Below are positions 19,705 through 35,500 of a DNA stretch of 58,875 nt, piece after piece (the first letter of the stretch is position 1; each line of letters begins with the position of its first letter). Origin of the DNA: Anaerolineales bacterium (lineage in GTDB: Bacteria; Chloroflexota; Anaerolineae; Anaerolineales; UBA11579); contig JAFGRA010000318.1 in NCBI GenBank assembly GCA_016935415.1, forward strand, positions 1 to 58,875. The letters are read 5' to 3'. The position numbers were made by a program, and so were the translations under genes. The notes beneath the pieces are model-generated. The model had not been told where the DNA came from and did not search any database. It worked only from the letters and a program-made list of their open reading frames with translations.

Positions 19705-20985
19705 TTACCCCACTAAACTTTCAATCGCACTTACAGCTTTTCCCCCCTCCGTAAATTCTCGCAGCCGCACCCCAAGTTCTTGCGCGGCTGTTTTATATTG
19801 GCTGTTCCCTAAAACATTCTCCACTGCCTCCCGAATGCGTTCTAGCGAGCCGTGGTCAGCTTTCGTCGCCAGGAAGGAATACTTCCCGTAACGCCAACGC
19901 TGCTGGATCAGGCGCATTTCTCCGGCATCCATTGGGCTAAGCACCTGAGCAACCGAGAGGCTTTCCAGTCTGCGCCCGTTAGCTTCCTGCTCGCTGTGGA
20001 AGGGTACCACCACGCTCGGTTTCCCAAACCAGAGCACTTCCATCGTCGTGCCATAACCTCCATGATAGACCACCAGATCGGCCTGCGCGATCACCGCCGG
20101 ACCAGTCACCCAATCCTTGACGATGAAATTCTCCGGCACCGGGGCAAGTTCCTCGGCCGGAATTTTGCCGCTCGTTGAAACGATCACCGTCATCTCGCGG
20201 CCACCTAATGCCTGAAAGACTTTTTCAAAGAAAGTCTTATTACCTACCGCACCTCCGCCAATTGTCACGTAGACCAATGGCCGCGTCCGGTCAAGTGATT
20301 CCAGCCAATTTGCGCCTTCGAGTGAAGCCACCGGGCGCGTCAGCGCCCCCACATATGCAGTATTTTCCAGATCATCGGGCAATGGGTCAAGTAGCGGGAT
20401 GCTGGGGATCAGGGTCAGGTCGCCAAACAGCATTTCTTCTGTCCGTTCGATCTCTGCCAGATCATACTTTCGCAGCACTTTCCCAAACAGTCGGCGCGGG
20501 TCGGGCGGCACGACGTTATCAAGCACATCCCGCCACCATACCAACCCGCTGCCACGCGGGTGCAGGATCGAGCGTACAATCTGCACAACCGGAATACCAG
20601 TCGCCTTACCGAGCATACCGGTCGGCAGCCAAGCGTCGCCAATCAACACCTGGGGCTGTACCTGCTGGATGAAGCGCAGTTGCTCCCGCATTGTCCGCCG
20701 CCACATACGCGGTGAATCTAGACGGTCGCGCACAAGTTGATAATCCATGTTGGTGAAAAACGTATACATGTTATGCCCGGATTCTTTCTCCACCGGGCGG
20801 AACGGGTAGCGCGGTTCAGATGCAGAAAATCCTTTTTTGCGCACACCTTCCAGGTGCTTCCCCGCCAGCACAAAATGGGATTCCCAGCCCGCGGCCTTTA
20901 ACGAATCCGCCAATGCCAGGCAGCGCCCAATATGCCCAAAACCACTTCCCAGGTAGCTGGGAAAGAACAGCGCCTTCTTCTTCAT
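19705..20985 (-). CDS. GT1-family (MGT/UDP-glycosyltransferase-type, GT-B fold) glycosyltransferase
   Basis: N-terminal GSGFGHIGRCLALA and C-terminal donor-binding motif VVYHGGYGTTMEVLWFGKPSVVVPFHSEQEANGRRLE, typical of macrolide/rifamycin-type GT1 enzymes. Start overlaps the upstream stop by 1 nt. Confidence 0.8.
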   Translation of the reverse strand: MKKKALFFPSYLGSGFGHIGRCLALADSLKAAGWESHFVLAGKHLEGVRKKGFSASEPRYPFRPVEKESGHNMYTFFTNMDYQLVRDRLDSPRMWRRTMREQLRFIQQVQPQVLIGDAWLPTGMLGKATGIPVVQIVRSILHPRGSGLVWWRDVLDNVVPPDPRRLFGKVLRKYDLAEIERTEEMLFGDLTLIPSIPLLDPLPDDLENTAYVGALTRPVASLEGANWLESLDRTRPLVYVTIGGGAVGNKTFFEKVFQALGGREMTVIVSTSGKIPAEELAPVPENFIVKDWVTGPAVIAQADLVVYHGGYGTTMEVLWFGKPSVVVPFHSEQEANGRRLESLSVAQVLSPMDAGEMRLIQQRWRYGKYSFLATKADHGSLERIREAVENVLGNSQYKTAAQELGVRLREFTEGGKAVSAIESLVG

Positions 20986-23348
20986 CAGTCTACTTCCTCT
21001 GCTTCCGTCGACTCAGACGACAAGATCACAATCTGGCCGCGGTCACCGTCCAGCCGGATGTAGTCGCCATCTTGGATCAATTGGGTAGCATCACGCACAT
21101 TCACTACTGCTGGAATACCATACTCGCGCGCTACCGTTGCCCCATGCGACAATATCCCGCCAATCTCGGTCACCAGACCGGCGCAGCTCAAAAACAACGG
21201 CGTCCAGCCCGGATCGGTATGCGGGGCTACCAGGATGCTGCCTGGCCGGAAGTGTTGCAATTCACTCAAATCGTGCAGTACGCAAGCCGTCCCCTCGACC
21301 ACACCAGGACTGCACGGGATGCCCAACAAACCGCCCTCAGCTACTTGCTCAACTGAGTCCGCCCGCGAGAGCACCAGTTCCGGGGCGTGCTGCTGACTGT
21401 GCGTGTTGTATTGCGCTTTCCGTTCCGCGATCAATTCAAGCGGTGAACTCGACAGACCGCGGCCTTCAATCAACGCGCGCAATTCGATGCGCTTGAAGAA
21501 GAACACGTCAGCCACTTCTGGGATGCTCTGCTCCGTGGCTAATTTCTCGCCGATCCTGAGATAATGCTGCCGCAACGCCGCAAACCCGGTGATCAACCGG
21601 TACTTGACTTCTTCACGCAGCACAGTATAGGCGCGTAGTTTCGCAACAGCCTGCTCCACCAATTTGCGCTGCCACGATGGCAATCCGGTTGCGGCAAATT
21701 TGCGCGCTGGTTTTGCTCTTGAAGAACTTATCCCACCGGCTTGGATCACACCAATATTATTGCGAATGATCTCCAACGCGTAGGTCGGGTCTTCTCCCCA
21801 GCGCGGCTGTGAAAGCTCAAATTCGCCCGCTGTTCGTCCACCATGAATTTCAAAGAAAGTATCCATTTCAGCTGCAATCCGTGCCCCAGGTTCGCTATCC
21901 AGCAACACCACCCGGATAGCAGGCCATGATTTATCATTTGTAAATAGACCAGCAAGCGTTTCATCTTCCGCCGCGATCTCAGCCACGCGCCAGAGCACTT
22001 TGCCCGGCTCGGAGGTACGCAGCTCTTCACCCGTCGACAAGATATCGGATAACAGCTTCTCGGTATCGGCTGGTGCCCAGGCATACAGCATACGCTCCAA
22101 AACCGCAAACGCGCCAATCGCGTACGTCGTCACCTTTAAATGCAAAGAGAAACACCCCGCCGTCCAACGCAGCAGTTCCGGCACATCTTCATCTAAAGGC
22201 AAAGCGGGGTAAGTATCCACCAGGCGAGAAAGCCGGTCAATCACACCCAACAGATCGCCCCAAAAGATCAATTTCGCCAGCATCACCGGTAGATTGCGCA
22301 CCGGTCGGTAAGGTAACACGGTATCCGGGTAGCGCAGGCCCAGCACTTTGCCAACCACATCCGGCGTCAAGTAAGGCAGGTAACAAAAACGGTGCAGCAT
22401 GCCAATGACCTGCACGTAGACGCGCCCGTAGAAGCGGTTCACGCCCTGACCTTCCGCGACGGAGGCGTCCTCACTCACGTTTTGGGTAAGCGTGGCCTGG
22501 AACACATCCCAGGTCAGCGGCGTGGCGACGTCAGGCAATACCTCACCCACGTTGGCACGCGTCCAAAGCTGCTCAATCTCGATGTGCTTGGGCACGGTAG
22601 TGATCGGCCTGCTTTGCAAAGCATACAAGTTCTCACCGTCCAACGCCCATTCGATATCTTGATCCGGCCCCAACAACTGCTCTACGCCTAACGCCAAGGC
22701 AATCAAGTCCGTGATCTCGCTGTCAGTCAAAATATTAGAATCGGGGATGGATAATGTCTCTGAGTGCCACGCTAATCGCAGCATCTCCGGTTCCTGGCGG
22801 CCGGACAACAATTCTTCGCCCAGTCCAGGCACAGTTTCGACCACCAATACGTTCCGGTCACCGGTGCTCGGATCAGCAGTGAACATCACTCCACTCTTGG
22901 TGGCATTCACCTGGCGCTGCACCAGCAGGGGCAAAGCCAGCGCATCGCCATCCAGACCCTGCCGTCGCAAATATACTTGCAGTTCCTCAGCATCCACTCC
23001 CGCCCAACATTCCTCAATGGCGGCTCTGAGTTGGTCAAAATTGGAAATCGAGAGGATCGTCTTGTACAATCCTGCAAAAGAAGCATCTGGCAAATCTTCG
23101 TTCAGGCCGGACGAACGCACCGCTACCAATTCACCCTGAGGGGCTAGTTCACGATAGGCGCGCACCACTTCTTCCCAGAAACTAGCCTCATCGATCCCTT
23201 CGGGTGCTTGTAGGATACAAAAACCGGGCGGCACCGGCAGCCCAGCCTGGCACAACGCCCCCAAAACAGCAGCCTTATTGCCAACCCGGTCGCCGTCCGT
23301 TAAGGTAACCGCATCCAATGGCAAAATATAACGGGAAGTCTGGCCCAT
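20985..23348 (-). CDS. PEP-utilising-enzyme family phosphotransferase: N-terminal PPDK_N ATP-grasp, long middle domain, C-terminal swivel phosphohistidine domain (rifampicin-phosphotransferase-like architecture)
   Basis: N-terminus VGNKAAVLGALCQAGLPVPPGF. C-terminus ILVAPHTDPGWTPLFLSCAGLVTEIGGILSHGATVAREYGIPAVVNV (mobile His domain). No C-terminal PEP/pyruvate TIM barrel, so it is not a canonical PpsA/PPDK. Confidence 0.75.
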   Translation of the reverse strand: MGQTSRYILPLDAVTLTDGDRVGNKAAVLGALCQAGLPVPPGFCILQAPEGIDEASFWEEVVRAYRELAPQGELVAVRSSGLNEDLPDASFAGLYKTILSISNFDQLRAAIEECWAGVDAEELQVYLRRQGLDGDALALPLLVQRQVNATKSGVMFTADPSTGDRNVLVVETVPGLGEELLSGRQEPEMLRLAWHSETLSIPDSNILTDSEITDLIALALGVEQLLGPDQDIEWALDGENLYALQSRPITTVPKHIEIEQLWTRANVGEVLPDVATPLTWDVFQATLTQNVSEDASVAEGQGVNRFYGRVYVQVIGMLHRFCYLPYLTPDVVGKVLGLRYPDTVLPYRPVRNLPVMLAKLIFWGDLLGVIDRLSRLVDTYPALPLDEDVPELLRWTAGCFSLHLKVTTYAIGAFAVLERMLYAWAPADTEKLLSDILSTGEELRTSEPGKVLWRVAEIAAEDETLAGLFTNDKSWPAIRVVLLDSEPGARIAAEMDTFFEIHGGRTAGEFELSQPRWGEDPTYALEIIRNNIGVIQAGGISSSRAKPARKFAATGLPSWQRKLVEQAVAKLRAYTVLREEVKYRLITGFAALRQHYLRIGEKLATEQSIPEVADVFFFKRIELRALIEGRGLSSSPLELIAERKAQYNTHSQQHAPELVLSRADSVEQVAEGGLLGIPCSPGVVEGTACVLHDLSELQHFRPGSILVAPHTDPGWTPLFLSCAGLVTEIGGILSHGATVAREYGIPAVVNVRDATQLIQDGDYIRLDGDRGQIVILSSESTEAEEVD

Positions 23349-23357
23349 CCGCTAACC

Positions 23358-24782
23358 TCAGCGCACCAACAATGTATAGGCACTGCGCGCCGGGAAAGTA
23401 TATGGAAAGCATCCCGCGCTGTCTAATGTCCCTATATCGGCTGGCTCGCTACCTTCCAGGTTATTCAGAATTTCCACATCCCCGGCCAGCGCGTATTCAG
23501 CTGCCATGCAGAAAGTCACCGGCGCTTTTTGTGGCCCGGCGTTGACTACCCACACAGCCACTTCATCACCAGTTGCAGAGCCTTGCCGAACGGCAAAGAG
23601 TTCCAGACCGCTCTCATTTTCAACGGCTACCAGTTGACCTTCCCCTAAATGATTATATATATTGGCGAACACCCAATAGGTTGGGTATAGATGGTAGGCA
23701 TCACCACGCGCGTTCGTGCCGCGCGAATCGGCAAATAGGCCATGTCCCGACCACCCCAATACGCTCGTGTAGGTATCTGCCAGCCGGAAGTGGATCACGC
23801 CATCGATGCCGCCCGGCCACAGGTAGGCCAACGTTTGCGAAAAATGCAGTGCGGCCGCTTCAGTCGAGAAATCCATGCCACCATCCGGGCTGCCGTGCTC
23901 AGTGCTGGCAAATTCGGTTATCCATACCGGCCCAAAGACGGAAAGCCGATCCAAACGCTGCAACAGGGCATCATTCAAGTTCTCCTGCCCGGCTTCATAA
24001 ACATGGTACGCCCAGCCGTCGCAACAGCCTTCTGGCTGTGCATTGTAGAAAGCCGCCGTCCAATCCGTGCCATGCACTTCGTCCAAACCAAACATACCAA
24101 TCTCCGGCGAGACTGCGTCAAGAGCTGCGCGTGTCTCTATCGCCATACGCAGCAAATCATCCTGGCTGCCCGTGAAAAAGGGCTCTAAATTAGGTTCGTT
24201 TACGAAAGCAAACGAAAGCCGTGCTGGTGCGATGTCGCAATCCTCCACCAGCCAGCGGAACAGTTCACGCACGAATTCGCGGTGTTCGGCGTAATCCACC
24301 GGGGGGAAGGTACCGCCCAACCCAACATAGCCGCCCGGCGTATCGGCATTCCAGCGCGCCGGCAGCCACATATTGATCTGGAAAACCATCTCGGGGAATT
24401 CTTGCCCCAATCGAGTGAACATTTCCTGATAGGTCAGGGTCTTGCCATTCTCCGGGTCGAGCGGGATCGTCAATCCAAAATTGATCTCCGAGAAATTGGG
24501 ATCGGCGTTGTCATTGACCGGTTCAATGTATTCCTGCGTGATCTGCACACGCAATACATTCGCCCCCAATGTCCGGATGCGCTCCACAAACAAATCAGTA
24601 TCCTGATCGACCCAGGCATACTCCACGCCATAATAACTTGGCAAGGATACATCCAACACATCCGCCGAGATATGTACCGTAGTTTCCTCCGCCGTTCCCC
24701 CGGCACACGCAAAGTTCGCCAAGAGCAGCAAAATCACTCCACTAAGCATATAAAAACTTCTAGCTCCCATTACGCGCCTCAT
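23358..24782 (-). CDS. Secreted lipoprotein, clan GH-A (beta/alpha)8 glycoside-hydrolase-like
   Basis: Lipobox LLLLANFAC. Acid/base motif FVNEPN and nucleophile motif VWITEFAS, as in GH5/GH39-type enzymes. Start set at ATG 24782, forming an ATGA overlap with the upstream stop. The track ORF start 24902 lies inside the upstream gene. Confidence 0.65.
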   Translation of the reverse strand: MRRVMGARSFYMLSGVILLLLANFACAGGTAEETTVHISADVLDVSLPSYYGVEYAWVDQDTDLFVERIRTLGANVLRVQITQEYIEPVNDNADPNFSEINFGLTIPLDPENGKTLTYQEMFTRLGQEFPEMVFQINMWLPARWNADTPGGYVGLGGTFPPVDYAEHREFVRELFRWLVEDCDIAPARLSFAFVNEPNLEPFFTGSQDDLLRMAIETRAALDAVSPEIGMFGLDEVHGTDWTAAFYNAQPEGCCDGWAYHVYEAGQENLNDALLQRLDRLSVFGPVWITEFASTEHGSPDGGMDFSTEAAALHFSQTLAYLWPGGIDGVIHFRLADTYTSVLGWSGHGLFADSRGTNARGDAYHLYPTYWVFANIYNHLGEGQLVAVENESGLELFAVRQGSATGDEVAVWVVNAGPQKAPVTFCMAAEYALAGDVEILNNLEGSEPADIGTLDSAGCFPYTFPARSAYTLLVR

Positions 24783-26014
24783 TCCACCGTGTCTTTCTCT
24801 TTCATCAACGCCCGCAACTTCTCCACTATTCCGCGCCGGGTGCGTCCCAGCAGATCGTATCCGGCCAGCAGAAAGATCTGCCACCAGGGTAATTGCGGCC
24901 AATTAGTGCGCAGGCGCATCAGCATTTGTTCCGAAGTCAAGTCCTGCACACGCGGGATCTGGCTATTCCAACTCTCGGCGCTCTGCCCCCAACTCGGCAC
25001 CGCCAGCCATTTTCCCTGCTGGTAGATGCGTTTGTAATCTGCGTCCCAGCCGGATTGGTAATGATTCAAGGTTTTGGTTGAGAAATCATTCTGGCTATGC
25101 GCAATTATCGCTGCTTCACCCGCCAACTTGCCACTCAACAGGGCCGGCTCGCTGCCCATGCAAGACCAGATCGTCGCCAGCCCGGCCGCATCCCCCACGC
25201 GCATCACGCCGTCATTGACCATGCGGTTCGGCGGGCAGATTGGGATCGATCCGGCTTCGTTATGCACCACTTCGGCATCTTTAAACCAGTTTGCATACGG
25301 CTCGAATTCGCGGAAAGCAGCATCATAACGCGCCTTGGCCAGCTTGCCGGGAAAGGCTACATTATCACCCAACGTAGCATAGCCGAAACTCACCAGGCCG
25401 TCATCCAGCGGATAGATCCAACCGCCACCATCACCATAATCATCACTCGGTGCCAGGAAGTAGACTTCTTCCGGATCGGGTACAGGGCAGTTCTTCAACA
25501 ATTGTCCGAAACTATGGCTGTACATGGTCGGCCGTGGCAAATCCAACCAACGGCTGGTCAGCATTGCTTTGCCGGAAGCATCAATGACCAGTGGGGTTTG
25601 GATACGCTCTCCGGAGCCGGTCGACAGTTTCCAACCGCCCTCGCGCCCGCGTTTGATTCCGGTCACATTATCTTTGAGCAGAGAGAGGTTTCCACCAGCT
25701 AAAGCCCGTTCCTGCAGAATTTCACAGGCTTTTCGGTAATGCAGTGCCACTAGGGGGTTCCCATCAAAAGGATGAGAGGACTTATTGCCAAGCGGACTAT
25801 CGAACGTAAAGCGATTGTAAGTACCCTGCACACTCTCCTGTAGACCGAAGCGCTCCACCACATCTACGAAGGTCATTGGCGTAGTCCGGTTGCTGCCCAC
25901 ATGCCTTTTCTCAAATAAGGCCACTGATAGCTCGGAGGCGGTGGAAAGCACCTCGGCTGCCGATAATCCTGCCAACCCTGCGCCAATGATCACAACATCA
26001 TACTGCATATCCAT
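24779..26014 (-). CDS. FAD-dependent oxidoreductase of the geranylgeranyl-reductase type
   Basis: N-terminal dinucleotide fold YDVVIIGAGLAGLSAAE. Internal VIDASG and RVGDAAGLA motifs typical of the GGR/FixC/UbiH superfamily. Sits between prenyl-related genes. Confidence 0.7.
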   Translation of the reverse strand: MDMQYDVVIIGAGLAGLSAAEVLSTASELSVALFEKRHVGSNRTTPMTFVDVVERFGLQESVQGTYNRFTFDSPLGNKSSHPFDGNPLVALHYRKACEILQERALAGGNLSLLKDNVTGIKRGREGGWKLSTGSGERIQTPLVIDASGKAMLTSRWLDLPRPTMYSHSFGQLLKNCPVPDPEEVYFLAPSDDYGDGGGWIYPLDDGLVSFGYATLGDNVAFPGKLAKARYDAAFREFEPYANWFKDAEVVHNEAGSIPICPPNRMVNDGVMRVGDAAGLATIWSCMGSEPALLSGKLAGEAAIIAHSQNDFSTKTLNHYQSGWDADYKRIYQQGKWLAVPSWGQSAESWNSQIPRVQDLTSEQMLMRLRTNWPQLPWWQIFLLAGYDLLGRTRRGIVEKLRALMKEKDTVE

Positions 26015-26049
26015 ACCTATTAAACTAAGCGACTAAAAGAATAACAGCC

Positions 26050-27132
26050 TTATTGATTTTGCTGCTGCTCGGGCGCAGGATGTCGCCAGCGGTTGTAGAG
26101 CGCCCGCAGCGGCCATAGCCAATCTGCCTGTCCCAATACCAGCCTCCAGAACAGGAACACCAGCAGCAGCCCCCATACATACACATTTTGCAAACAAGCC
26201 AGGAACAAGAGGTAAGCCGGAATACCCAGGTTGGGCAGCGTCTCGTGCAGCAGTTTAGTAGTGCTGTGTCCCGGCGTGTAATACGGCTCGACCACCACGC
26301 CCGGTTCGCCGCGCGCCATCTCGACAAAAGCCAGCACCAGAAACAGCAGGTAAAGCAGGAACAACGGCAGACCTACCGGAAATCGCAGACCGAAAATCTC
26401 CCATTGGCCCAGGTTCAGCCAAACCACCAGACATACCAACCCGACCGCCAGCTTATCGGCAAGCAAAGCGATGCAGTACAACGCGTCCATTTTGCTCGTC
26501 GAAGCCCTGGCTCCCAGCGTGCCCGCGCCGGTCTCCCGGTCGCGCAGTTGGTCATGACGCTGGTGAGCCACTTCCAGGGTGGCGCCGCTGATCGTATAGG
26601 CAGCCACCAAAGCCCACATATCCCAGCCACCCAATTCGCCCAAGGCAGCAAAGGTCAACAACAAAGGCAGCGTCCACTGCGCCACTGCCGAGACCGAAAG
26701 CCCCAATGTGCCCTTTTCTTTCAGGCGCACGGGCGGCAGCGAATAACCCAAAGCAAAGAAAATCCACAATAGCCACAGTACCACAAAACCCGGTTGCCCA
26801 ATAAAGGGAACACCAGACATCAACGCCAGCAGAAAAAGCATCATCAGTGCGGTAATACCCTGTCCCAATGACAGGTTCAGAAAAACATTCGGCTTCCCCT
26901 GGCGGCGGTCCAGATCGCGGTCGCCCCAATCGTTGGCAACGTAACCCAAGGCGGAATGCAGTAGAGCATAAACAAAGAACAGGCCAACTCGCAATAGGAA
27001 ACCGGCCGAGATCAGCTGATCGGAAAGGCCGATGTAAAAACCAAGCGAGAGCAAGACCGGGATTTTTCCCGGTCCCCAATCACGCCAGCGCACAAATACG
27101 CCTGCTTTTTGGAAGATTTGCTTCAAACTCAC
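26050..27132 (-). CDS. UbiA-superfamily membrane prenyltransferase
   Basis: About 9 TM helices. First Asp-rich motif YVANDWGDRDLDRRQGKPN (NDxxDxxxD) and a second acidic motif HQRHDQLRDRE. Confidence 0.8.
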   Translation of the reverse strand: MSLKQIFQKAGVFVRWRDWGPGKIPVLLSLGFYIGLSDQLISAGFLLRVGLFFVYALLHSALGYVANDWGDRDLDRRQGKPNVFLNLSLGQGITALMMLFLLALMSGVPFIGQPGFVVLWLLWIFFALGYSLPPVRLKEKGTLGLSVSAVAQWTLPLLLTFAALGELGGWDMWALVAAYTISGATLEVAHQRHDQLRDRETGAGTLGARASTSKMDALYCIALLADKLAVGLVCLVVWLNLGQWEIFGLRFPVGLPLFLLYLLFLVLAFVEMARGEPGVVVEPYYTPGHSTTKLLHETLPNLGIPAYLLFLACLQNVYVWGLLLVFLFWRLVLGQADWLWPLRALYNRWRHPAPEQQQNQ

Positions 27133-28460
27133 AACGCGCCCTTCTCCGCGCTCTTCCGCATCCTAAAACGCACGATCATGTCTTTGAGTACGCCAAATTG
27201 CTGTTTCACTTCAGCTAACTTAGGCAGCAACATGTCCCGCCAGTTGAGGGACGTTTCGCCAATGAACTTGAACGACAACACCAGCGTCATGACAGCGTAG
27301 CCGAATGCCGTAGCTGCCGCCGCTCCGTTCGTTCCCCACAGCGGTAGAAGTACAAAGATCGCGATGGCAGTAACAGCCACACCAATCACTGCGGCCAACA
27401 CCATCCATTGCTGTCGGTCTTTGGCCGTAAAATAGCGGATCAGCACCTTGTACAATCCCATCGCCATAATGCCGGGCATCAGCACGATCAATGGGATCAC
27501 ACTGGCCTGGTAATCTGCGCCATACACCAGCGGGATCAATAACCAGCCAGTCGACAACAGCCCGATCCCGATTAGCGCCGTAAATACCATTGTAAAACGT
27601 CCAACCTTGGCGGTGAGTGGTCCGATCTCAGCATCCTCCACAGCAGTCAAGCGCGGGAACAGCACCAGCCCAACCGAGTCGGGAATATACCACACCATTT
27701 CTCCCAGTGAAGCTGCCAGGCTGTAATAAGCCACTTCAACCGGAGAGAGGTAAATCGCCAGCAGGTACATGGATAGGCGATAATTCAAGAAGCCCAACAT
27801 ATTATGGGCATAGATCTTGGAGCCATACAAGAATGATTCTTTGAGCATCCCGCCATTAAAGCCCAATTCCACCGGTATGGTGATCATCAACGAGACCAGG
27901 GCGAACAACAACGTGGTGGTCATCACCCCAAAATAAAGTGCGATCACCTGTGTCAACCCACCATGGAATCCAAAAAAGATTACCGAGATTCCAGTCAGCA
28001 GCAAAATTCCTTCCAATAGACGCTGCAAGTTGAACAGGTCGAAACGGTCATAGGCGCGCAGGAAGGAAAGCAGCATCCGGCTCAAAAGCAAAACAGGTAC
28101 TAACAGCACCATCCAGATATACGCTTCTTTCGGCATGCCCTTCAAAACCAATTCCTGGACCGGAATGCGCAGCAGCCACAACCCGATTGTAGCCACCAGC
28201 CCCACCACCAGGCAATACGCCAGTGAATTCCCCAGCACGTAACGCGGCGCGTACTCTTTTTTCTTTAACATATAAATATTGGCCTGTGACAATCCCACGT
28301 CTAGGAAGCTATACACCAGGATCGGCAACGTCATCACCAGAAACATAATGCCCCGGTCCAGCACGGTCAGGAAGCGCGCCAACAGGATGCCGACTACCGC
28401 ATTGATGCCAACCATGATAATCTCGGCCGAGAAGGTGAAGAGTACGTTTTTGAAAAACAA
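27129..28460 (-). CDS. MOP-superfamily polysaccharide/lipid-linked oligosaccharide flippase (Wzx-like)
   Basis: About 12-14 TM helices and size typical of Wzx/polysaccharide biosynthesis proteins. ATGA-type 4-nt overlap with the UbiA gene. Confidence 0.7.
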   Translation of the reverse strand: MFFKNVLFTFSAEIIMVGINAVVGILLARFLTVLDRGIMFLVMTLPILVYSFLDVGLSQANIYMLKKKEYAPRYVLGNSLAYCLVVGLVATIGLWLLRIPVQELVLKGMPKEAYIWMVLLVPVLLLSRMLLSFLRAYDRFDLFNLQRLLEGILLLTGISVIFFGFHGGLTQVIALYFGVMTTTLLFALVSLMITIPVELGFNGGMLKESFLYGSKIYAHNMLGFLNYRLSMYLLAIYLSPVEVAYYSLAASLGEMVWYIPDSVGLVLFPRLTAVEDAEIGPLTAKVGRFTMVFTALIGIGLLSTGWLLIPLVYGADYQASVIPLIVLMPGIMAMGLYKVLIRYFTAKDRQQWMVLAAVIGVAVTAIAIFVLLPLWGTNGAAAATAFGYAVMTLVLSFKFIGETSLNWRDMLLPKLAEVKQQFGVLKDMIVRFRMRKSAEKGAL

Positions 28461-28469
28461 AGCGAATCC

Positions 28470-29483
28470 TTATTCTGCTACCTGTAAACTATGCGTCATC
28501 GCCGCCAGAAACTGCATAGCGTGGTTCTCGCGTGGTACTTGCGAGAGGGCTTGCAGCGCCTGTCCATGATATTGTTTGAAGGTCGCAACACTGTTCGCTT
28601 TTGCATCCGATTTCTCAAGCAACCCCAACACCTGCTCCACTTCCGCAGCATCCAACTCTCCTTCATTCCGGGAGTAGATGGCTTGCAATTGTTTGCGTCC
28701 CTCCGCCGATAAAGTTTCCAGTGCATAGATCACTGGTAGGCATTTCTTTTTCTTGCGGATATCGCTGTACATCTTGAGGCCAAGCACTTCCGCGTCCCCC
28801 CAAATATTAAGGTAGTCGTCCCGGATCTGGTAGGCAACGCCCAGGTTCCAGCCGAACTGATTGAAAGCCTCGATGATCGCTTCATCCTCAGTCGCCAACG
28901 TGGCGGCCATCAGGGTTGGGTAGGAAAGCAAGGTAGCCGTCTTCTTTCCGATCACCTCAAAATACATATCCTGCGTGATCTCAGCCGTATTTTCGTACAT
29001 CAGATCCAAATGTTGGCCTTCCGCAAGCGAAATGGACGCCTGAGAGAACAACGAAAGCATATGCGCCATTTTCGAACGGTCGATGTCAAGATTATTCATC
29101 GACTGGAAAGCCAGCGAATACAACAAACTACCTGCATTCACTGCCAACCCTTCGCCCAATTTCTTCCACAAAGTCGGGCGGCCGCGCCGTTCCAGGTCGC
29201 GGTCTTCCATATCATCCAGGATCAAAGTGAAATTATGGGTCAGTTCAATGGCAACAGCCAACGGAATTGCGGGGTTAAAATCGCCAGTGGTCGCCTCATG
29301 GACCAGCAACGTGAGGATAGAGCGCACTTTTTTACCCTGGCTGCCCGACATTTCAACCCCGTCTTCCCATCCAAAATGATAATAAATGATTTCGCGAATA
29401 CCGGGCGACAACTGGTCAACGAGCACCTTCATACCCTGGTCGATGCAATCATGATATTGCTTAAAAACAGCCGTCTTGTCCAT
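28470..29483 (-). CDS. trans-Polyprenyl diphosphate synthase (GGPP/long-chain type)
   Basis: First Asp-rich motif LILDDMEDRD and second motif YQIRDDYLN(IWG), plus the GKKT lysine-rich segment of polyprenyl_synt enzymes. Confidence 0.85.
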   Translation of the reverse strand: MDKTAVFKQYHDCIDQGMKVLVDQLSPGIREIIYYHFGWEDGVEMSGSQGKKVRSILTLLVHEATTGDFNPAIPLAVAIELTHNFTLILDDMEDRDLERRGRPTLWKKLGEGLAVNAGSLLYSLAFQSMNNLDIDRSKMAHMLSLFSQASISLAEGQHLDLMYENTAEITQDMYFEVIGKKTATLLSYPTLMAATLATEDEAIIEAFNQFGWNLGVAYQIRDDYLNIWGDAEVLGLKMYSDIRKKKKCLPVIYALETLSAEGRKQLQAIYSRNEGELDAAEVEQVLGLLEKSDAKANSVATFKQYHGQALQALSQVPRENHAMQFLAAMTHSLQVAE

Positions 29484-29526: not shown

Positions 29527-31041
29527 CTACTTCCTTCGATATAAATTATAAGCACCAATCGACTCGTCCAGTTCATAATGTGCTGCGATTGACGCAGGGT
29601 CATAGACTTGCGTCCACTCTCCGAACTCGCCGACCAAGAGATACTCAGGTTGACCTGCTTCGTAGAAATCATAGTAAGCATAGGGCGGCTGCTCCTGGTA
29701 CCAAATATATTTGATGGCAATATTCAAGATATCGCCCGGCGGCATGCTGCAGGCATGCTCGGCCATGAAACAAATCTCCGGGTCGTAAGTTTCGATTTCA
29801 ACATCAGCCGGGACATACTCACGAATATAGGCGCTAATCTGTTGGGGAGTATCATCATTATTGTGGACAATGTCAAGTGCACGACCTTGCAGGGAACGCC
29901 CGGCAATGATTACCAGTAATGCCAGCAAAGCGATCTTTGCCACCACCCGGGGCTGGATTTCACCCCCAGCAAAAAACCCCTTGACCTCATCCCAATGCAA
30001 CGAAAACCCATCCGTGAGATCATGGAAAATCAACGCCGTGAACAAAGCGGAGAGTGTGAACGGCAGGAAGGCATAGCGCGGCCAACCCACTGAAAGCAAC
30101 GCAAACCAGGCAATCCAGGCTAATGTCACCACCACCAGCAAACCATAAACCACGTTCGCGCGCGTCTTTTTGATACTTCTGATTCCAACGTACAATACGC
30201 TTGGGAAGATCCAGCCATAGAACGCGTCCTGCCCGGTCAGAAATTTGATCGCATCCATCATGCGCGGCATCGAGAACGTCATAATCCCCCGATCGAGCGC
30301 ACCGCTCCATTCATTGAGATTAGCACTCGCCAATTGTTCTCCATCCGGGAACAGAAAGACTTGCCCAACGTACCAGGCCAATACCGTCACCAGCGCAATC
30401 CCGAACGGTAGCAAAAAATCCCGATGGCGCAATTGTTTGTAGTAAAAATGATTCAATACCCACATCAACAGCCAGGCAGGGAAGAGCAGAAATAATTGGT
30501 TTTTGGTCAATACCGCTAATCCAAGAAACAGCCCGGTAAAGGTCAAACCCCTCAATTTTGATTTCTCCGTTTTCGGAACGATAGTCTGATACCACACCAG
30601 GATTGCGGCATAGAAGAACATCCCCGCCGGTATTTCGCCGATTACCTGGCGTCCCCAACGGATCAGATTCACCCCGCTAGAGGTGACCAACAGCAGCGTA
30701 GCGACCGATGCCACCTTCCAGTTCACCAGATTCTTAGAGAAGAGGTAAAAGACCAGAATCAACAAGAAGCAATAGATCACCATCACGATCCGTCCGGCGG
30801 TCAGGGTAGCTCCAAGCATCTTAAAAGCAATCGCCACTGGGAAGAATAGGGTCGGACCGACGGCAGGGCCGAACCGGTAGCGCCCTTCTAGTGCCAGTTT
30901 CTTGGCAACCAATAAGTGAATACCTTCATCGAAGGCAGCCTTCGGATAGGTCGTTAAGTTAAACATCAGCAAGAATGCAATCAGCAGCAACAAGAGCACA
31001 TTCAGCAGTGTGGGCAAATATTTTTTTATGATATCCATCAA
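29527..31041 (-). CDS. GT-C-fold membrane glycosyltransferase (ArnT/PMT, GT39/GT83-like)
   Basis: About 12 TM helices. First-loop motif AAFDEGIHLLVAKKL (the DE motif of ArnT/PMT-type enzymes). C-terminal soluble domain. Confidence 0.7.
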   Translation of the reverse strand: MMDIIKKYLPTLLNVLLLLLIAFLLMFNLTTYPKAAFDEGIHLLVAKKLALEGRYRFGPAVGPTLFFPVAIAFKMLGATLTAGRIVMVIYCFLLILVFYLFSKNLVNWKVASVATLLLVTSSGVNLIRWGRQVIGEIPAGMFFYAAILVWYQTIVPKTEKSKLRGLTFTGLFLGLAVLTKNQLFLLFPAWLLMWVLNHFYYKQLRHRDFLLPFGIALVTVLAWYVGQVFLFPDGEQLASANLNEWSGALDRGIMTFSMPRMMDAIKFLTGQDAFYGWIFPSVLYVGIRSIKKTRANVVYGLLVVVTLAWIAWFALLSVGWPRYAFLPFTLSALFTALIFHDLTDGFSLHWDEVKGFFAGGEIQPRVVAKIALLALLVIIAGRSLQGRALDIVHNNDDTPQQISAYIREYVPADVEIETYDPEICFMAEHACSMPPGDILNIAIKYIWYQEQPPYAYYDFYEAGQPEYLLVGEFGEWTQVYDPASIAAHYELDESIGAYNLYRRK

Positions 31042-31161: not shown

Positions 31162-32160
31162 TTAATTCTCCCCTCGCTGTTCACTCATCTTCGATGCCAG
31201 CTTGTCAATAATCGGGTCTTCAAGTCCACCCCAGCCGCGGATACCGCTTAACTGCGTTGTGGCTCCGGCCGCAAATCCACGCGTCCACCAAATGATCCCT
31301 AAAACCAGATTGACGATCAAGGATGGATGCCGCATCATGATGCCAGGGTAGACCCGCACCATCGCCACAAAGGCGCGCAAGAATTTGACCGCACCCAATG
31401 CGGGAGACATCACAAAAGACAGGAACGCGCTCCGTCCAATGAAACTCCCCGGAAGGTCAAGCTGCGCCAGTGTACAGCGCGTCACCCGGCCAATGCGGTG
31501 CAGATGAGATAGGCAATCCCGCAGGTTGCTACGCGCGTAGTGGCGCACGAGGATAGCCGGATCGAACCAAACTTCGTGGCCGTACATGCCCAGCAGGTAA
31601 TTGAATAATAAATCTTCCTGGGGATAGTAAGCATTCGGGAAACCCTCATGCTCCAGGAAAAGATCACGCTGGTAAGAAATATTACAAGTTGGGATGTGTA
31701 TTACCGTGCGCGACTCACCGACCGGGGAAAATTCACGAAACTCATATAGATGTGCAGCCCAGGCCACCGCGTCGTCCATATCGGCCGGTTCGATCGCGCC
31801 CCCTACAATCATGTGGCCGTCGGCATGGCGCGCTTCGATATTCTCAATCCAGGCTGGGTCAGCGAGACAATCCGCATCAATGAAAGCCACCACCGGGCTT
31901 TTCGCTTCCTGCACACCGTGATTGCGCGCCGGTCCTGGGAAAATGCGATGGTCATAGACAATCACGCGCACTTCAGGATAATGTACTTTGATGATCTCCA
32001 CCGTGTTATCTTCCGAAGAATCAACGATGATGACCTCTTTTGGCAGCACAGTTTGAGTGTAAAGCGATTCCAGGCAGCCGAGAATCGTCGCTCCACTATT
32101 ATAGGAAGGGATGATTACGCTGATCTCAGCAGTCCGTCTCTCTTCAGCCGCGCTACTCAC
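31162..32160 (-). CDS. GT2-family (GT-A fold) glycosyltransferase
   Basis: ISVIIPSYNSGATILGCLESL, VIIVDSSED, FIDADC (DxD) motifs. 4-nt overlap with the upstream epimerase gene. Confidence 0.85.
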   Translation of the reverse strand: MSSAAEERRTAEISVIIPSYNSGATILGCLESLYTQTVLPKEVIIVDSSEDNTVEIIKVHYPEVRVIVYDHRIFPGPARNHGVQEAKSPVVAFIDADCLADPAWIENIEARHADGHMIVGGAIEPADMDDAVAWAAHLYEFREFSPVGESRTVIHIPTCNISYQRDLFLEHEGFPNAYYPQEDLLFNYLLGMYGHEVWFDPAILVRHYARSNLRDCLSHLHRIGRVTRCTLAQLDLPGSFIGRSAFLSFVMSPALGAVKFLRAFVAMVRVYPGIMMRHPSLIVNLVLGIIWWTRGFAAGATTQLSGIRGWGGLEDPIIDKLASKMSEQRGEN

Positions 32161-33215
32161 GATTCCATCACCTCTGTGCCGGTATAGTTTGTATGCAGAC
32201 TACCGGCAAAGTTCCGCTCTTCGATCAACCAGGTGAGCGTGCGCGCTAGACCGGCTTTTAAATCCACATCGGGATGATATCCTAAGGCGTCTTCTGCTGC
32301 CTTTATGGAAAAACTCCGGTGCTTGCTCACCACGTTCACTTTATCACGCGTAAGAAATGGCGCTTGCGTAGAACGAATAATACCCAACCAATTCCCAAAC
32401 CGGTAAGCTGCTTCTATTATACTCGCGGAAACTGTCGCAAAGGCCAACGGAATGTGAACATCGGGGCTACGCACTTCCAACAAACCAGTAATTGTATCCA
32501 CAATTTCGACCATCGAATTCGAACTCGGGCCACCAATATTGAACGTCTGTCCCGGCGCAGTTGGATGCGTGCTCGCCAATAAAATGCCCTTCACCAGATC
32601 ATCGATATAGGTTAGGTGAATGTGATTATGACCATTGCCCATGTACATGAACTGGCCTACACTTAACATACCAATTAAACGCGTCACCATGCCATCTTCA
32701 TCACCGGGGCCGTAGGTAATCGTCGGGCGCACGATCACAATTTCCATCTGGTCGGCATATTCCCTGACAACTATTTCAGCTTTCGCTTTGGTGCGGTGAT
32801 ACCCGTGTCCACTTTTCTCGGTCTCGGTCGAAAAACGCTCATCGATCCCGGTCTTACCCGGAAATCCGTACACTCCAACCGAACTGATATACACAAACCG
32901 CTTAACTCTGTTCTGCGCGCATTCCAACAACCGGCGCGTGGCTTCCACGTTGACGCGCTCATAAGCTTCCTCAGATGTGCCCCAGCGATTGCGGATCGCG
33001 GCAGTGTGGATGACTAAATCATACCCGGCCAGGAAATCCTCATCCCCGCGCAGATCACTCAAATCCTTCGAGACCACATCCAGGTTTTCAATCTCTGACA
33101 CCGTGTCCAGGCTGGCGGCGCGCACCAACGCGCCGACCTCCCAGCCCATTTCTGCAAATGTGCTGGCTAGCGAACGTCCAATAAACCCCGTTATCCCGGT
33201 TAGGAAAACTCGCAT
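32157..33215 (-). CDS. NAD(P)-dependent sugar epimerase/dehydratase (extended SDR)
   Basis: MRVFLTGITGFIG (GxxGxxG), SSVGVYG, YHRTKAKAE (YxxxK). Confidence 0.85.
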   Translation of the reverse strand: MRVFLTGITGFIGRSLASTFAEMGWEVGALVRAASLDTVSEIENLDVVSKDLSDLRGDEDFLAGYDLVIHTAAIRNRWGTSEEAYERVNVEATRRLLECAQNRVKRFVYISSVGVYGFPGKTGIDERFSTETEKSGHGYHRTKAKAEIVVREYADQMEIVIVRPTITYGPGDEDGMVTRLIGMLSVGQFMYMGNGHNHIHLTYIDDLVKGILLASTHPTAPGQTFNIGGPSSNSMVEIVDTITGLLEVRSPDVHIPLAFATVSASIIEAAYRFGNWLGIIRSTQAPFLTRDKVNVVSKHRSFSIKAAEDALGYHPDVDLKAGLARTLTWLIEERNFAGSLHTNYTGTEVMES

Positions 33216-33223
33216 CCGATCAG

Positions 33224-33502
33224 CTACTCCTCATACTTCATGACCGGGCGATACATACAGCGGCATTCAGCTTTCATCGTACATTCCGGCAAAGGCAGCG
33301 TCGGCGCATCGTCAGGTAAATAAACGGTATCAGGATCGAGTTCTTGGGCTGCCTGACAGCAATCAGGAAACGAGAGCACTCGCACACCGCGGATCGAGCC
33401 ACCGGCGCGGATGCCCAGCTTGTAAGCCGCCAAGGTCTTTTCGGCATAGTTTTCCGGCTTTTCTTGATTGCGTGCGAAATCCTTGAGCCAGTTAAGCGGC
33501 AT
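33224..33502 (-). CDS. Small Cys-rich hypothetical protein (92 aa)
   Basis: ATG at 33502 overlaps the radical SAM stop by 11 nt. Six Cys (DCC, ECTMKAECRC). No recognised family. The longer track ORF start 33553 lies inside the upstream gene. Confidence 0.45.
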   Translation of the reverse strand: MPLNWLKDFARNQEKPENYAEKTLAAYKLGIRAGGSIRGVRVLSFPDCCQAAQELDPDTVYLPDDAPTLPLPECTMKAECRCMYRPVMKYEE

Positions 33503-34637
33503 GATCCACTTCCTTTCGCTTGACGTCCTGCGGCTTGGATTTATCATTCTCACTCAGACTGAGAATATTCGTGCTAACCCGGATAAGGGTGGGCACATCG
33601 TGCAGCATATTGGTATAAGCCGCGTTTGCTAACGGGCAATTGCATTCCTTGGCAGCAATACTGCGGCGCACTTCCTTGATCTTTTCGCCAAACCAGATTG
33701 CCTTGAAGTCGTAGTCGAAGTCACGCAGGTTGCCCAGATCGTCTGCGCGGATACAACACGGCCACACCGTACCATCGGCGTAGATCTGGCAGCTTGCCCA
33801 CCCGGCATAACAGGGGATCACCTGGTCCTCTTCGGCCAGGATGCGCTGCACCAGATTGTAGTACTCCAGGCGGAACGCTTCCGTAATGCGAGACATTCCA
33901 CGGTACGTACGGCTGCGGACATATTCACCAAGGCGGTTCACCGCCTTGGCATACGCCTCTCGGTCAGGGGTGATCGGCAGGCCAATCGTATCCAACTCCA
34001 CGCGTGGTTCAGCGATCTCAGTGATGAACTGATCCACGCCCGTAGTCTCAACGTATTCAATAATCTCATCCAGGTCTTTAACGTTGAAGGTCGATAGCAC
34101 CGTATGGATACCCAGGTTCAAATTGTCATATTTCTCGCGCAGTTCCAGCAAGGCGTTCAGTGTGCGCTCGAACTTCTCGAAGTTGTTGGCTACCCCACGG
34201 ATGAAATCATGCTTTTCGCCTACCCCATCGAGGGATAAATTGATAATGACTTGGGAATCCGGGCAAGACTCGCAAATTGCCGCCACCCGCTCCGGGATTA
34301 CTTTCAAGATACTGTTGGTGGGGATATTGATGATCCCAGGACGACAGTGTTTGTAAGCCGATTGTGCCAGTTCAACGATTTCATTATTAAGGAAAGGCTC
34401 ACCGCCACTGATCGTGAACCAATACGGCGCCCTGCCCAAAGAAGCCAGGGTCTTATCCCACTCTTCCAGGGTCATTTCATTCTCGCGCTTCATCCAGATG
34501 TTGCAGGTCAGGCAGCGCGAATTGCAGCGCGGCGAAGGGGATAGGGTCAGATTGATCGGCACCATTTTCGGCCAGCCGGTCAGCCGGTAAAGCCAGAACA
34601 AAGGAACGCGTGCTAAAACACCAATCATAGATTGCAT
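33492..34637 (-). CDS. Radical SAM enzyme with C-terminal SPASM/twitch-type auxiliary cluster domain
   Basis: CNSRCLTCNIW (CxxxCxxC), GGEPFL SAM-binding motif, C-terminal CYAGWASCQIYADGTVWPCC...CNCP Cys cluster. N-terminal hydrophobic segment. Start set at ATG 34637 (MQSMIG), preceded by a GAAAGG SD, 4 nt after the upstream stop. Confidence 0.8.
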   Translation of the reverse strand: MQSMIGVLARVPLFWLYRLTGWPKMVPINLTLSPSPRCNSRCLTCNIWMKRENEMTLEEWDKTLASLGRAPYWFTISGGEPFLNNEIVELAQSAYKHCRPGIINIPTNSILKVIPERVAAICESCPDSQVIINLSLDGVGEKHDFIRGVANNFEKFERTLNALLELREKYDNLNLGIHTVLSTFNVKDLDEIIEYVETTGVDQFITEIAEPRVELDTIGLPITPDREAYAKAVNRLGEYVRSRTYRGMSRITEAFRLEYYNLVQRILAEEDQVIPCYAGWASCQIYADGTVWPCCIRADDLGNLRDFDYDFKAIWFGEKIKEVRRSIAAKECNCPLANAAYTNMLHDVPTLIRVSTNILSLSENDKSKPQDVKRKEVDHAA

Positions 34638-34641
34638 TACA

Positions 34642-35487
34642 TTAAGCCTTTCTCGCCCATACCGCAGTATGGTGAGCAAATAATCGTTTTATAAACCGTA
34701 TCCGCGTATTCTCAAAATAGGCCAATCGATCCATATCAGCGTGCACTTCGGCGAATTCTGCCCGATCGTAATATGGCAGTCCATCTGCGGGCCATAGGTA
34801 GCGGCTTTCCGGTTTTACTTTGTCGGCTGCCGAACGCATGAACGGAAAAAAGTCGACGATCAATTGGCTGATATCGATAATATCCGGCCACCATGGGCAG
34901 TCCACGTGATCGTTCTGAATATCTTTGAAACCCAAACGCTCAAAATACTTTTCCCAAGAGCGCGCCTGCATTAAATCGATCCGCCCATGATCCCACAGAT
35001 CGTGAGCCACCCGGTGATGCAAGCGATGCATCCAGAAACTGTAATTATGCCGGTTTGGAACGCAGATCAATACAGCTTTGCGAGCAACCCGCCCCATTTC
35101 GGCCAACACCTGGAACGGGTCAGCTTCCCGGGGCATCACGTTGAAATTCCAGACCAGGTCGAAGCTGTTATCAGGGAACGGCAAACAGGCGCCATTAAAT
35201 TCGGTCATGAATTGAACTTCGGCATCCGGCGCGTAGCGCTCCCAGATCGCGCGTGAAAAAGCTGCGCGCTCCGCTCCTCTCAGCAGCACAGTTGCCTTTG
35301 CACCCTTTCGGGCTAAGTTCAGGCTGTTAATGCCATCGATCCCGGCAATGCCGTCGTCCGGCCCTTCCAGCACACTCTCGATTTGCATATCTGCCGTAAT
35401 GCGCAGCAGGAAACGATTAAGCGCCCATCGCTCGTAAGTTGTGCCTAGTCCACGATCGGCCGAATCAAAATACAATTCAGAATCCAT
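34642..35487 (-). CDS. Class I SAM-dependent methyltransferase
   Basis: Rossmann-type VLEGPDDGIAG...ARKGAKATVL and FPDNSFDLVWNFNV, LAEMGRVARKAVLI motifs (Methyltransf_11-like). Start set at ATG 35487 (MDSELYF), downstream of the GT2 stop. Confidence 0.7.
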   Translation of the reverse strand: MDSELYFDSADRGLGTTYERWALNRFLLRITADMQIESVLEGPDDGIAGIDGINSLNLARKGAKATVLLRGAERAAFSRAIWERYAPDAEVQFMTEFNGACLPFPDNSFDLVWNFNVMPREADPFQVLAEMGRVARKAVLICVPNRHNYSFWMHRLHHRVAHDLWDHGRIDLMQARSWEKYFERLGFKDIQNDHVDCPWWPDIIDISQLIVDFFPFMRSAADKVKPESRYLWPADGLPYYDRAEFAEVHADMDRLAYFENTRIRFIKRLFAHHTAVWARKA

Positions 35488-35500
35488 AAAGTATTGCTGC

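Follow-up and report, generated by a model that had tools for sequence, protein, structure and literature searches.

An uncharacterised UbiA-superfamily clade in bacterial glycan-assembly loci, encoded in an Anaerolineales operon beside a predicted C20 prenyl synthase and a geranylgeranyl-reductase-fold flavoprotein

The window analyzed here is the whole 58,875-nucleotide stretch of contig JAFGRA010000318.1 from an Anaerolineales bacterium of the Chloroflexota (assembly GCA_016935415.1). Four consecutive minus-strand open reading frames (ORFs) at 24779–29483 encode a trans-isoprenyl diphosphate synthase (28470–29483, 337 aa), a Wzx-type flippase of the multidrug/oligosaccharidyl-lipid/polysaccharide (MOP) superfamily (27129–28460, 443 aa), a UbiA-superfamily intramembrane prenyltransferase of unclassified clade (26050–27132, 360 aa) and an FAD flavoprotein of geranylgeranyl reductase (GGR) fold (24779–26014, 411 aa). 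An interpretation of this DNA made earlier from its letters alone (the sequence-only reading) had proposed that synthase, UbiA enzyme and flavoprotein, with the flippase between them, are a triad that makes an unusual lipid-linked donor for an adjacent GT-C glycosyltransferase (GT). All four ORFs were recovered at these coordinates with Pfam/NCBIfam matches, at E-values well outside what chance would give, and with the DDxxD and NDxxDxxxD motifs present. Synthase and flippase genes are 9 nt apart, flippase and UbiA genes overlap by 4 nt, and 35 nt separate the UbiA gene from the flavoprotein gene; the quartet is part of a co-directional block of 14 minus-strand genes running from 36391 down to 19705. 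The UbiA protein, the core of the module, is placed by its sequence in an uncharacterised clade of the UbiA superfamily, and this clade is embedded in glycan-assembly loci in several phyla, where it is genetically tied to flippases, GT-C or tetratricopeptide-repeat (TPR) proteins, GT2 glycosyltransferases, a short-chain dehydrogenase/reductase (SDR) and SPASM-type radical S-adenosylmethionine (SAM) enzymes.

The UbiA protein matches PF01040 at 51.1 bits (cut-off 34.2) and has two Asp-rich motifs, NDWGDRDLD (of the form NDxxDxxxD) and HDQLRD (DxxxD); across 27 family members N67, D71 and D75 never vary, and conservation is ≥90% at D194 and D198. Its AlphaFold2 model (pLDDT 93.6) has a polytopic, all-helical UbiA fold. 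Foldseek searches with this model returned AfUbiA, the digeranylgeranylglyceryl phosphate synthase (DGGGPS) of M. jannaschii, Rv3806c, ApUbiA and UBIAD1, all at probability 1.00, with template-modelling (TM) scores of 0.58–0.70 to target and 0.47–0.57 to query; judged from the model, these matches appear generic for the fold and do not separate subfamilies. No NCBIfam subfamily model reached its cut-off, the best being PRK12875 (35 bits), ChlG (34 bits) and BchG (33 bits). PRK12875 and ChlG/BchG are likewise the nearest named families for 26 of the 27 clade members (24–26 by model), and the homogentisate phytyltransferase model appears for five of the 27, all of these scores lying far under the cut-offs. 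The prenyl diphosphates used by ChlG/BchG and by homogentisate phytyltransferase are of C20 length. The sole PDB sequence match was chlorophyll synthase 9sau (E 3e-5). The window protein gave no match to MenA, UbiA/COQ2-type or CyoE models at E≤0.01, or, at the same threshold, to the DGGGPS models NF009521 and NF009522, which were not listed for the family at E≤0.001 either. Among models of decaprenylphosphoryl-5-phosphoribose (DPPR) synthase (NF008976-8 and NF006088), only NF006088 matched it (15.2 bits, E 0.006), and three of the 27 clade members matched DPPR-synthase (DPPRS) models faintly.

Five other UbiA-family genes are present in the genome, which is 95% complete: a haem O synthase, a MenA and a DPPRS-like protein that score above curated cut-offs, and two MenA-like proteins that score below. 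The DPPRS-like paralogue (353 aa, on a separate contig, C334) reaches 264.6 bits with NF008978 (cut-off 207). At the position of the second Asp-rich motif it reads KRRAE, whereas the MenA of the genome keeps DIESD and the window protein keeps DxxxD. In the structure of Rv3806c bound to phosphoribosyl diphosphate (PRPP), a single Mg2+ was resolved (PMC10994848). Because the second motif is intact in the window protein and absent from the DPPRS-like paralogue, and only one Mg2+ is seen in Rv3806c, there is moderate evidence at the level of motifs that the window protein would work like the canonical, two-metal members of the superfamily, which ionise a prenyl diphosphate.

A maximum-likelihood tree was computed from 46 rows of the window family, the UbiA paralogues of the genome, two BchG sequences and seven DPPRS-like sequences of the same phylum. 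The window clade was separated from the CtaB, MenA, BchG and DPPRS-like references with support of 94/96, and the seven DPPRS-like rows formed their own clade (100/100) outside it. As the sequence-only reading had allowed, HMM scores and tree thus put the protein outside the quinone and haem clades, as represented in the tree by MenA and CtaB. Its other suggestion, kinship with DPPR synthases, fared worse: membership was ruled out by HMM scores, motif comparison and tree, and the genome carries its separate DPPRS-like gene on another contig. An early tree with a single DPPRS-like sequence had placed that sequence inside the window clade, a long-branch artefact that was gone once seven were used; one reference row (L054), probably a wrongly extracted ORF, was ignored. 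Searching of the full-text literature found no description of the UbiA clade, of the flavoprotein clade or of the type of bacterial glycolipid chemistry proposed below.

Among 1.84 billion cluster representatives searched with a profile, 212 UbiA-clade proteins scored E≤1e-30. Named carriers include metagenome-assembled genomes (MAGs) of Anaerolineales/Anaerolineae, Syntrophorhabdus aromaticivorans, and MAGs of Desulfatiglandales, Caldithrix, the PVC group, Melioribacteraceae and Eubacteriales; at higher rank, these are Chloroflexota, Thermodesulfobacteriota, Calditrichota, Ignavibacteriota, the PVC group and Eubacteriales (Firmicutes). Since a sample of 400 other genomes from the phylum contained no member at E≤1e-25, against a DPPRS-like gene in 102 of 151, the UbiA clade is accessory and sporadic.

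In the neighborhoods of the clade (related loci are numbered with L, proteins with P), Anaerolineae loci keep the order methyltransferase, radical SAM, GT2, SDR, flippase, UbiA, flavoprotein, hydrolase-like, dikinase, GT1; the flippase-UbiA-flavoprotein order is repeated in at least five independent metagenome loci, and related loci encode a flippase of 38–43% identity in the position immediately upstream of UbiA. Across phyla the partners are SPASM radical SAM enzymes, SDR, GT2s, flippase and polytopic GT-C/TPR proteins, with SDR and radical SAM the most widely conserved. The Syntrophorhabdus locus combines UbiA with GT2s, a radical SAM/SPASM enzyme, SDR and flippase, and the Desulfatiglandales locus (L026) with GT2s, radical SAM genes and an FAD protein. 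The Anaerolineae and Caldithrix loci also share the flavoprotein, secreted hydrolase, Rph-like dikinase and GT1, and the downstream half of the operon (hydrolase, dikinase, GT1) is co-conserved with UbiA and flavoprotein in the Anaerolineae loci, L004 and the Caldithrix locus (L020); in Caldithrix, UbiA occurs with a secreted GH26-like protein, GT1, flippase, dikinase and a flavoprotein homologue of 31% identity. In four loci (L017, L019, L021 and L026) the gene immediately before UbiA encodes a polytopic membrane protein that has TPR repeats at its C-terminus, in L001 UbiA is between two GT-C genes, since PMT_2 GT-C genes flank it on both sides, and in the Melioribacteraceae locus it follows a Wzt ABC-transporter ATPase; PMT_2/STT3-like or polytopic TPR proteins thus flank UbiA in loci that have no homologue of the window GT-C. 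FG-GAP surface proteins are encoded in relatives' loci as well. The strongest partners of the UbiA clade, namely radical SAM/SPASM enzyme, SDR, GT2, Rph-like dikinase and GT1, lie outside the triad on which the sequence-only reading had centered.

Gene fusions repeat some of these associations. UbiA is fused to radical SAM/SPASM domains in both orders (P0213, P0228 and P0276) and, in one protein (P0255), to a Wzx-like domain with 12 transmembrane segments. More distant clade members show fusions to TPR/GT41, cytochrome P450 and CrtC-like lipocalin domains (weak matches; P0231, P0260, P0270, P0271); the P450 and CrtC-like fusions sit in the half of the clade other than that of the window protein.

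The flavoprotein has TIGR02032 (GG-red-SF) as its best NCBIfam match (82.1 bits, E 5e-23, under the cut-off of 158.8), and its Pfam matches are of the DAO, Lycopene_cycl and Pyr_redox Rossmann types only, with no FAD fold of the vanillyl-alcohol oxidase (VAO) type. With an AlphaFold2 model of pLDDT 92.6, Foldseek gave 3oz2 (TM 0.78/0.80, rmsd 3.1), Sulfolobus GGR (0.77), FixC (0.69), halogenases and UbiI (0.59), and a profile of the family matched 3oz2 best among PDB entries, over the full length (E 6.6e-21). At the place of the YxWxFP substrate-positioning motif the protein reads GGWIYP, in which Trp, the aromatic residue and Pro are kept and the first Tyr is replaced by Gly. By fold model and profile the protein therefore appears nearest to archaeal GGRs, and neither DprE1-type (VAO) nor like aromatic hydroxylases, in line with the sequence-only reading. 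Its clade comprises approximately 37 clusters, beyond which similarity falls to E 1e-14. The flavoprotein shares loci with UbiA in L001, L003, L012, L014, L020, L035 and L036, with adjacency read directly in L001, L003, L035 and L036, and in Anaerolineae the two are co-inherited. For many members of its clade the longest contig is equal in length to that of a UbiA-clade member, which suggests that both lie on one contig. In L035 (7657-10004), two extra flavoproteins, one matching NAD_binding_8 and one of amine-oxidase/CrtI type, are encoded directly upstream of the GGR-fold gene.

The synthase matches PF00348 (E 1e-61), with DDMED as its first, unextended motif and DDYLN as its second. The residues before DDMED are F-T-L-I-L, placing Phe at −5 and Thr at −4; among 119 homologues, 112 have Phe at −5 and all have Ser or Thr at −4. 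In the Wang and Ohnuma scheme, type-I (archaeal-type) geranylgeranyl diphosphate (GGPP) synthases are recognized by an unextended DDxxD, an aromatic residue at −5 and a small one at −4. The chain-length residues, to which the sequence-only reading had drawn attention, thus fit the short-chain, type-I GGPP-synthase pattern, and a C20 product is predicted. The best NCBIfam matches are GGPP/IdsA-type models, all under cut-off, and the PDB neighbors are 3nf2 and the P. horikoshii GGPP synthase 1wy0. Two other synthase homologues are found in the genome, one of long-chain type (Ala at −5, Thr at −4; contig C423) and one divergent (C383), and a cis-prenyltransferase lies on C287. A synthase homologue occurs in all 40 sampled genomes of the order. 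The window enzyme is 32–39% identical to the short-chain synthases of eight relatives, which are 41–63% identical to each other, and is therefore a divergent paralogue or xenologue. The canonical short-chain synthase of the order was not found in this 95% complete assembly, in which the in-operon copy is the only one of short-chain type. The nearest homologues (40–42% identical) are on contigs too short to show gene context.

Synthase and GT-C are lineage-specific inserts. In most related Anaerolineae loci their position is occupied by a 362–379 aa protein with weak HprK/PEPCK-like P-loop leads and a full-length RtcB homologue (L001:4530-7084, L003:5923-8555, L036:5006-7571). An atlas look-up of the 374-aa protein that replaces GT-C/synthase gave only weak HprK/ScmC-like leads; a weak HprK-like domain is fused to UbiA in P0152. 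RtcB, of the RNA-ligase family, might serve in a glycan operon for GMP activation of a phosphomonoester.

The flippase matches PF01943 (Polysacc_synt, 49.3 bits, E 5.8e-13) and PF13440 (Polysacc_synt_3, 46.7 bits, E 3.3e-12) and has about 12 hydrophobic segments. Directly upstream of the synthase is the GT-C fold membrane glycosyltransferase of PMT_2 type (29527–31041; PF13231 at 31.5 bits, cut-off 26.1), with at least six hydrophobic segments and a match under cut-off to the Agl23-like model TIGR03663 (42.6 bits); its sole homologue among related loci is in L035 (41% identity). The remaining genes of the block were assigned by Pfam unless stated otherwise: a GT2 (35501–36391), a methyltransferase (34642–35538), a radical SAM/SPASM enzyme (33492–34679) adjoined by a small Cys-rich protein (33224–33553), an extended SDR (32157–33215, PF01370) and a second GT2 (31162–32160) upstream of the GT-C, and, downstream of the flavoprotein and by Pfam/NCBIfam matches, a secreted glycoside hydrolase (GH)-like protein with a signal-anchor segment (23358–24782, with M41 as probable start), an Rph-like ATP-grasp/swivel-His dikinase of rifampicin-phosphotransferase type (20985–23348) and a GT1 of macrolide-glycosyltransferase type (19705–20985). 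The top matches of the radical SAM protein (a generic twitch/SPASM model, SkfB and BlsE) are all weak and uninformative for its classification. Called from its longest ORF (start 24902), the hydrolase-like gene would share 124 nt with that of the flavoprotein; M41 (24782) is the more likely start because it gives an ATGA stop/start overlap with the flavoprotein gene and places the signal-anchor helix near the N-terminus. A scan for promoter-like sites found 28, against 16.3 in shuffles (sd 3.9), and terminator-like sites were at chance level; the ends of the operon are not defined by either.

We favor, with a probability of roughly 40%, a reading in which the quartet is the lipid part of a 14-gene surface-glycan operon and a C20 prenyl group is placed on a sugar or sugar phosphate that is then tailored, extended and flipped. 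Its donor, acceptor, saturation step and order of reactions are inferred; the placements, motifs, folds, neighborhoods and fusions described above are what was observed. No classical phosphoglycosyl transferase Pfam family was seen in the window operon, L001, L003 or L025, among genes that were scanned or had precomputed Pfam families, so the priming or lipidation step is left open for UbiA. The UbiA protein would ionise an allylic prenyl diphosphate with two Mg2+, as canonical prenyltransferases do, and would pass the prenyl group on to an oxygen nucleophile, located on a sugar or sugar phosphate that the upstream enzymes produce. The C20 unit GGPP would be the donor in this lineage, where its source would be the divergent synthase of type-I GGPP pattern whose gene has been inserted two positions upstream of UbiA. 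The GGR-fold flavoprotein would then alter the redox state of the isoprenoid tail, most likely by saturating at least one double bond; the GT2 and GT1 enzymes would lengthen the lipid-linked saccharide, the Wzx-type protein would flip it, the GT-C enzyme would use the flipped product outside the membrane and the secreted hydrolase would trim the polymer. The result would be a glycolipid with a short isoprenoid, possibly saturated in part, and its role would be that of an anchor or a lipid-linked donor, replacing undecaprenyl phosphate or existing beside it. Somewhat more tentatively, the UbiA clade as a whole may be a functional class that lipidates or primes surface glycans with a C20 isoprenoid, which a GGR-fold flavoprotein then saturates.

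Several observations weigh against this reading. GT-C enzymes normally need polyprenyl-phosphate-sugar donors, which would fit a PRPP-type mechanism at least equally. The similarity of the UbiA protein to the C20-using ChlG/BchG models is weak (33–35 bits vs. cut-offs of 212–313), and the tree was built without DGGGPS and UbiA/COQ2 references. Neither GT-C nor synthase has a counterpart in 16 related loci, and apart from this operon both occur solely on one sister contig, which encodes a UbiA protein 91% identical to that of the window; the triad is therefore not a conserved unit, which weakens the sequence-only reading. Furthermore, five other cassette-bearing genomes have only two synthases each, and in Syntrophorhabdus both lie approximately 1 Mb from the cassette. 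The window synthase could even be a housekeeping enzyme rather than a dedicated one, since the assembly is without the canonical copy present in 40/40 genomes of the order. Lastly, the flavoprotein falls under its family cut-off, and the GGR residue Cys47 (VRCGEG) aligns with Phe49, which is nearly invariant in the flavoprotein clade; Cys47 is reported to be conserved in all archaeal GGRs and essential in that of S. acidocaldarius (PMC10821996). The flavoprotein is thus not a demonstrable GGR: fold and profile speak for the proposed saturation, cut-off and Cys47 against it. On balance the sequence-only idea of an unusual lipid-linked donor module is partly supported.

The most serious alternative, which we regard as possible but rather unlikely, is a variant of the three-component donor systems: UbiA would take a diphosphate-activated sugar, for example PRPP, and transfer its phospho-sugar part to polyprenyl phosphate, the SDR, radical SAM enzyme and perhaps flavoprotein would epimerise or tailor the lipid-linked sugar as an oxygen-independent counterpart of DprE1/DprE2, the MOP protein would flip it, and the GT-C would add it to the outer glycan. 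Anaerolineae, Syntrophorhabdus and Desulfatiglandales are anaerobes, for which an FAD/quinone-dependent DprE1 would be awkward. SDR and radical SAM are, moreover, the partners kept most widely, with radical SAM fused to UbiA in three proteins, and GT-C or polytopic TPR genes adjoin UbiA in L001, L017, L019, L021 and L026. A published system has an equal parts list (PMC11127046): its synthase is of the UbiA family, its flippase of MATE/MOP type, and a GT-C is accompanied in some cases by an extended-SDR epimerase. It shows that the donor-for-GT-C principle assumed in the sequence-only reading does exist in bacteria. Against this explanation, the window protein is outside the DPPRS/PPPRS clade and retains the second DxxxD (KRRAE in the DPPRS-like protein of the genome; one Mg2+ in Rv3806c, PMC10994848), a Pfam scan of the operon found no 5-phosphate phosphatase of the HAD or PAP2 families, a DPPRS-like gene is already present elsewhere in the genome and in 102/151 genomes of the phylum, and the GGPP-type synthase in the operon would have no role.

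It is also conceivable, at clearly lower probability, that the flavoprotein saturates the carrier itself, giving a dolichol-like α- or ω-saturated polyprenyl phosphate much as archaeal GGR paralogues do, with a separate role for UbiA; this was the first analogy drawn in the sequence-only reading. We know of no saturated bacterial glycan carrier, which counts against this, as do the missing Cys47, the score under family cut-off and the Syntrophorhabdus cassette without a flavoprotein, although the Desulfatiglandales locus (L026) does have an FAD protein, just 25% identical. What speaks for it is the GGR fold, the weak similarity of the GT-C to the archaeal Agl23 family and the loss of saturated dolichol phosphates in Haloferax without GGR (PMC10821996). 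Equally improbable, in our view, is a natural-product cluster for a prenylated, glycosylated and phosphorylated small molecule or modified peptide, with the MOP protein as exporter and the Rph-like kinase and GT1 in tailoring or self-resistance. Such a cluster would explain the macrolide-glycosyltransferase type of the GT1, the rifampicin-phosphotransferase type of the dikinase, the small Cys-rich ORF adjoining the SPASM radical SAM gene, the distant members fused to P450 or CrtC-like domains and the sporadic occurrence of the clade (0/400 other genomes of the phylum); yet two GT2s, a GT-C and a secreted GH-like protein, along with the FG-GAP surface proteins, Wzt ABC transporters and polytopic TPR proteins of relatives, point to a polymer, and the half of the clade with the P450 and CrtC-like fusions is not that of the window protein. 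That a bacterium makes ether membrane lipids by an archaeal-type pathway is scarcely credible, and the pathway was rejected. GGPP synthase, DGGGPS-like UbiA and GGR would match its three enzyme classes, and AfUbiA and the M. jannaschii DGGGPS are among the top structural matches; but these are generic for the fold (TM 0.47–0.57), the curated DGGGPS models are unmatched, the context is glycan assembly, and the 95% complete genome has neither PcrB-type geranylgeranylglyceryl phosphate synthase (GGGPS; PF01884, 0 matches) nor an egsA-type glycerol-1-phosphate (G1P) dehydrogenase above cut-off (PF13685, best 24.4 bits vs. 28), absences that the sequence-only reading had suspected.

Returning to the favored C20-transfer reading, the module shares features with three known systems. 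In the pentofuranose system of Citrobacter youngae, ORF15 is a PPPRS, ORF14 a MATE flippase, ORF12 a GT-C (GT136) and ORF13 an optional SDR epimerase (PMC11127046). Like this three-component system and the mycobacterial decaprenylphosphoryl arabinose (DPA) pathway (Rv3806c, DprE1/E2, Emb/Aft), the window encodes a UbiA-superfamily enzyme, MOP flippase, GT-C and extended SDR together and has no evident GtrB-type GT2 donor synthase. It differs from both in the clade and the retained second Asp-rich motif of its UbiA protein, in having no HAD or PAP2 phosphatase, and in the addition of radical SAM enzyme, methyltransferase, dikinase, GT1 and prenyl synthase; its flavoprotein, unlike that of the DPA pathway, has a GGR rather than a VAO/DprE1 fold. 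With ChlG/BchG, the nearest named family, and the geranylgeranyl reductase ChlP/BchP, the module would share the logic of a C20 unit joined to an oxygen nucleophile and a tail reduced by a GGR-type flavoprotein. It departs from them in that the window clade lies outside BchG in the tree, its model scores fall far short and its flavoprotein has no Cys47. No BchG was found in the genome at E≤1e-40, BchG being the sole photosynthesis gene searched for. The archaeal pairing of DGGGPS with a reductase (Ta0516, 3oz2; Sulfolobus GGR) resembles the window in its UbiA-fold enzyme, in a flavoprotein that best matches 3oz2 and in a type-I GGPP-synthase-like gene, whereas the window has no GGGPS or G1P dehydrogenase, does not match the DGGGPS models, is a glycan operon and has Phe in place of the catalytic Cys.

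The stretch is almost fully present in one sediment metagenome. In a hot-spring metagenome of another study, many identical short contigs were found across 25.8–35.3 kb. No RNA data set was listed as containing the stretch. A metatranscriptome library that belongs to the study of the source metagenome has three identical short contigs, at 24512–24736, 25253–25403 and 34401–34537, within the hydrolase-like, flavoprotein and radical SAM genes; because these are contigs only and DNA carry-over is possible, they are no proof of transcription. On contig C334 (locus L031, 9183–12543), the DPPRS-like gene adjoins a GHMP kinase and an amino-acid-kinase-family protein, a pair that looks like mevalonate kinase and isopentenyl phosphate kinase. 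With homologues in 102/151 genomes of the phylum, the DPPRS-like UbiA gene may be a core, isoprenoid-related gene in Chloroflexota rather than an arabinan gene.

To the best of our knowledge, the lipid on which bacterial envelope glycans are built is in nearly all known cases undecaprenyl (or decaprenyl) phosphate, and the only UbiA-family enzymes known in glycan assembly are the PRPP-dependent DPPR/PPPRS synthases. A role for a UbiA-family enzyme in lipid-linked glycan assembly is thus already known; what appears new here is the UbiA clade and the flavoprotein clade. A second, unrelated UbiA clade in glycan operons would provide a new lipid-linked-sugar reaction, and the clade is a test case in which the candidate donor of a single membrane enzyme is either a prenyl diphosphate or a sugar diphosphate. 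If the more tentative reading of the whole clade is true, some anaerobic bacteria build a phytanyl-type glycolipid anchor or carrier that is chemically nearer to archaeal lipids than to undecaprenyl phosphate, and their radical SAM enzymes tailor it without oxygen; this would perhaps be a new class of isoprenoid glycolipids and a possible sediment biomarker.

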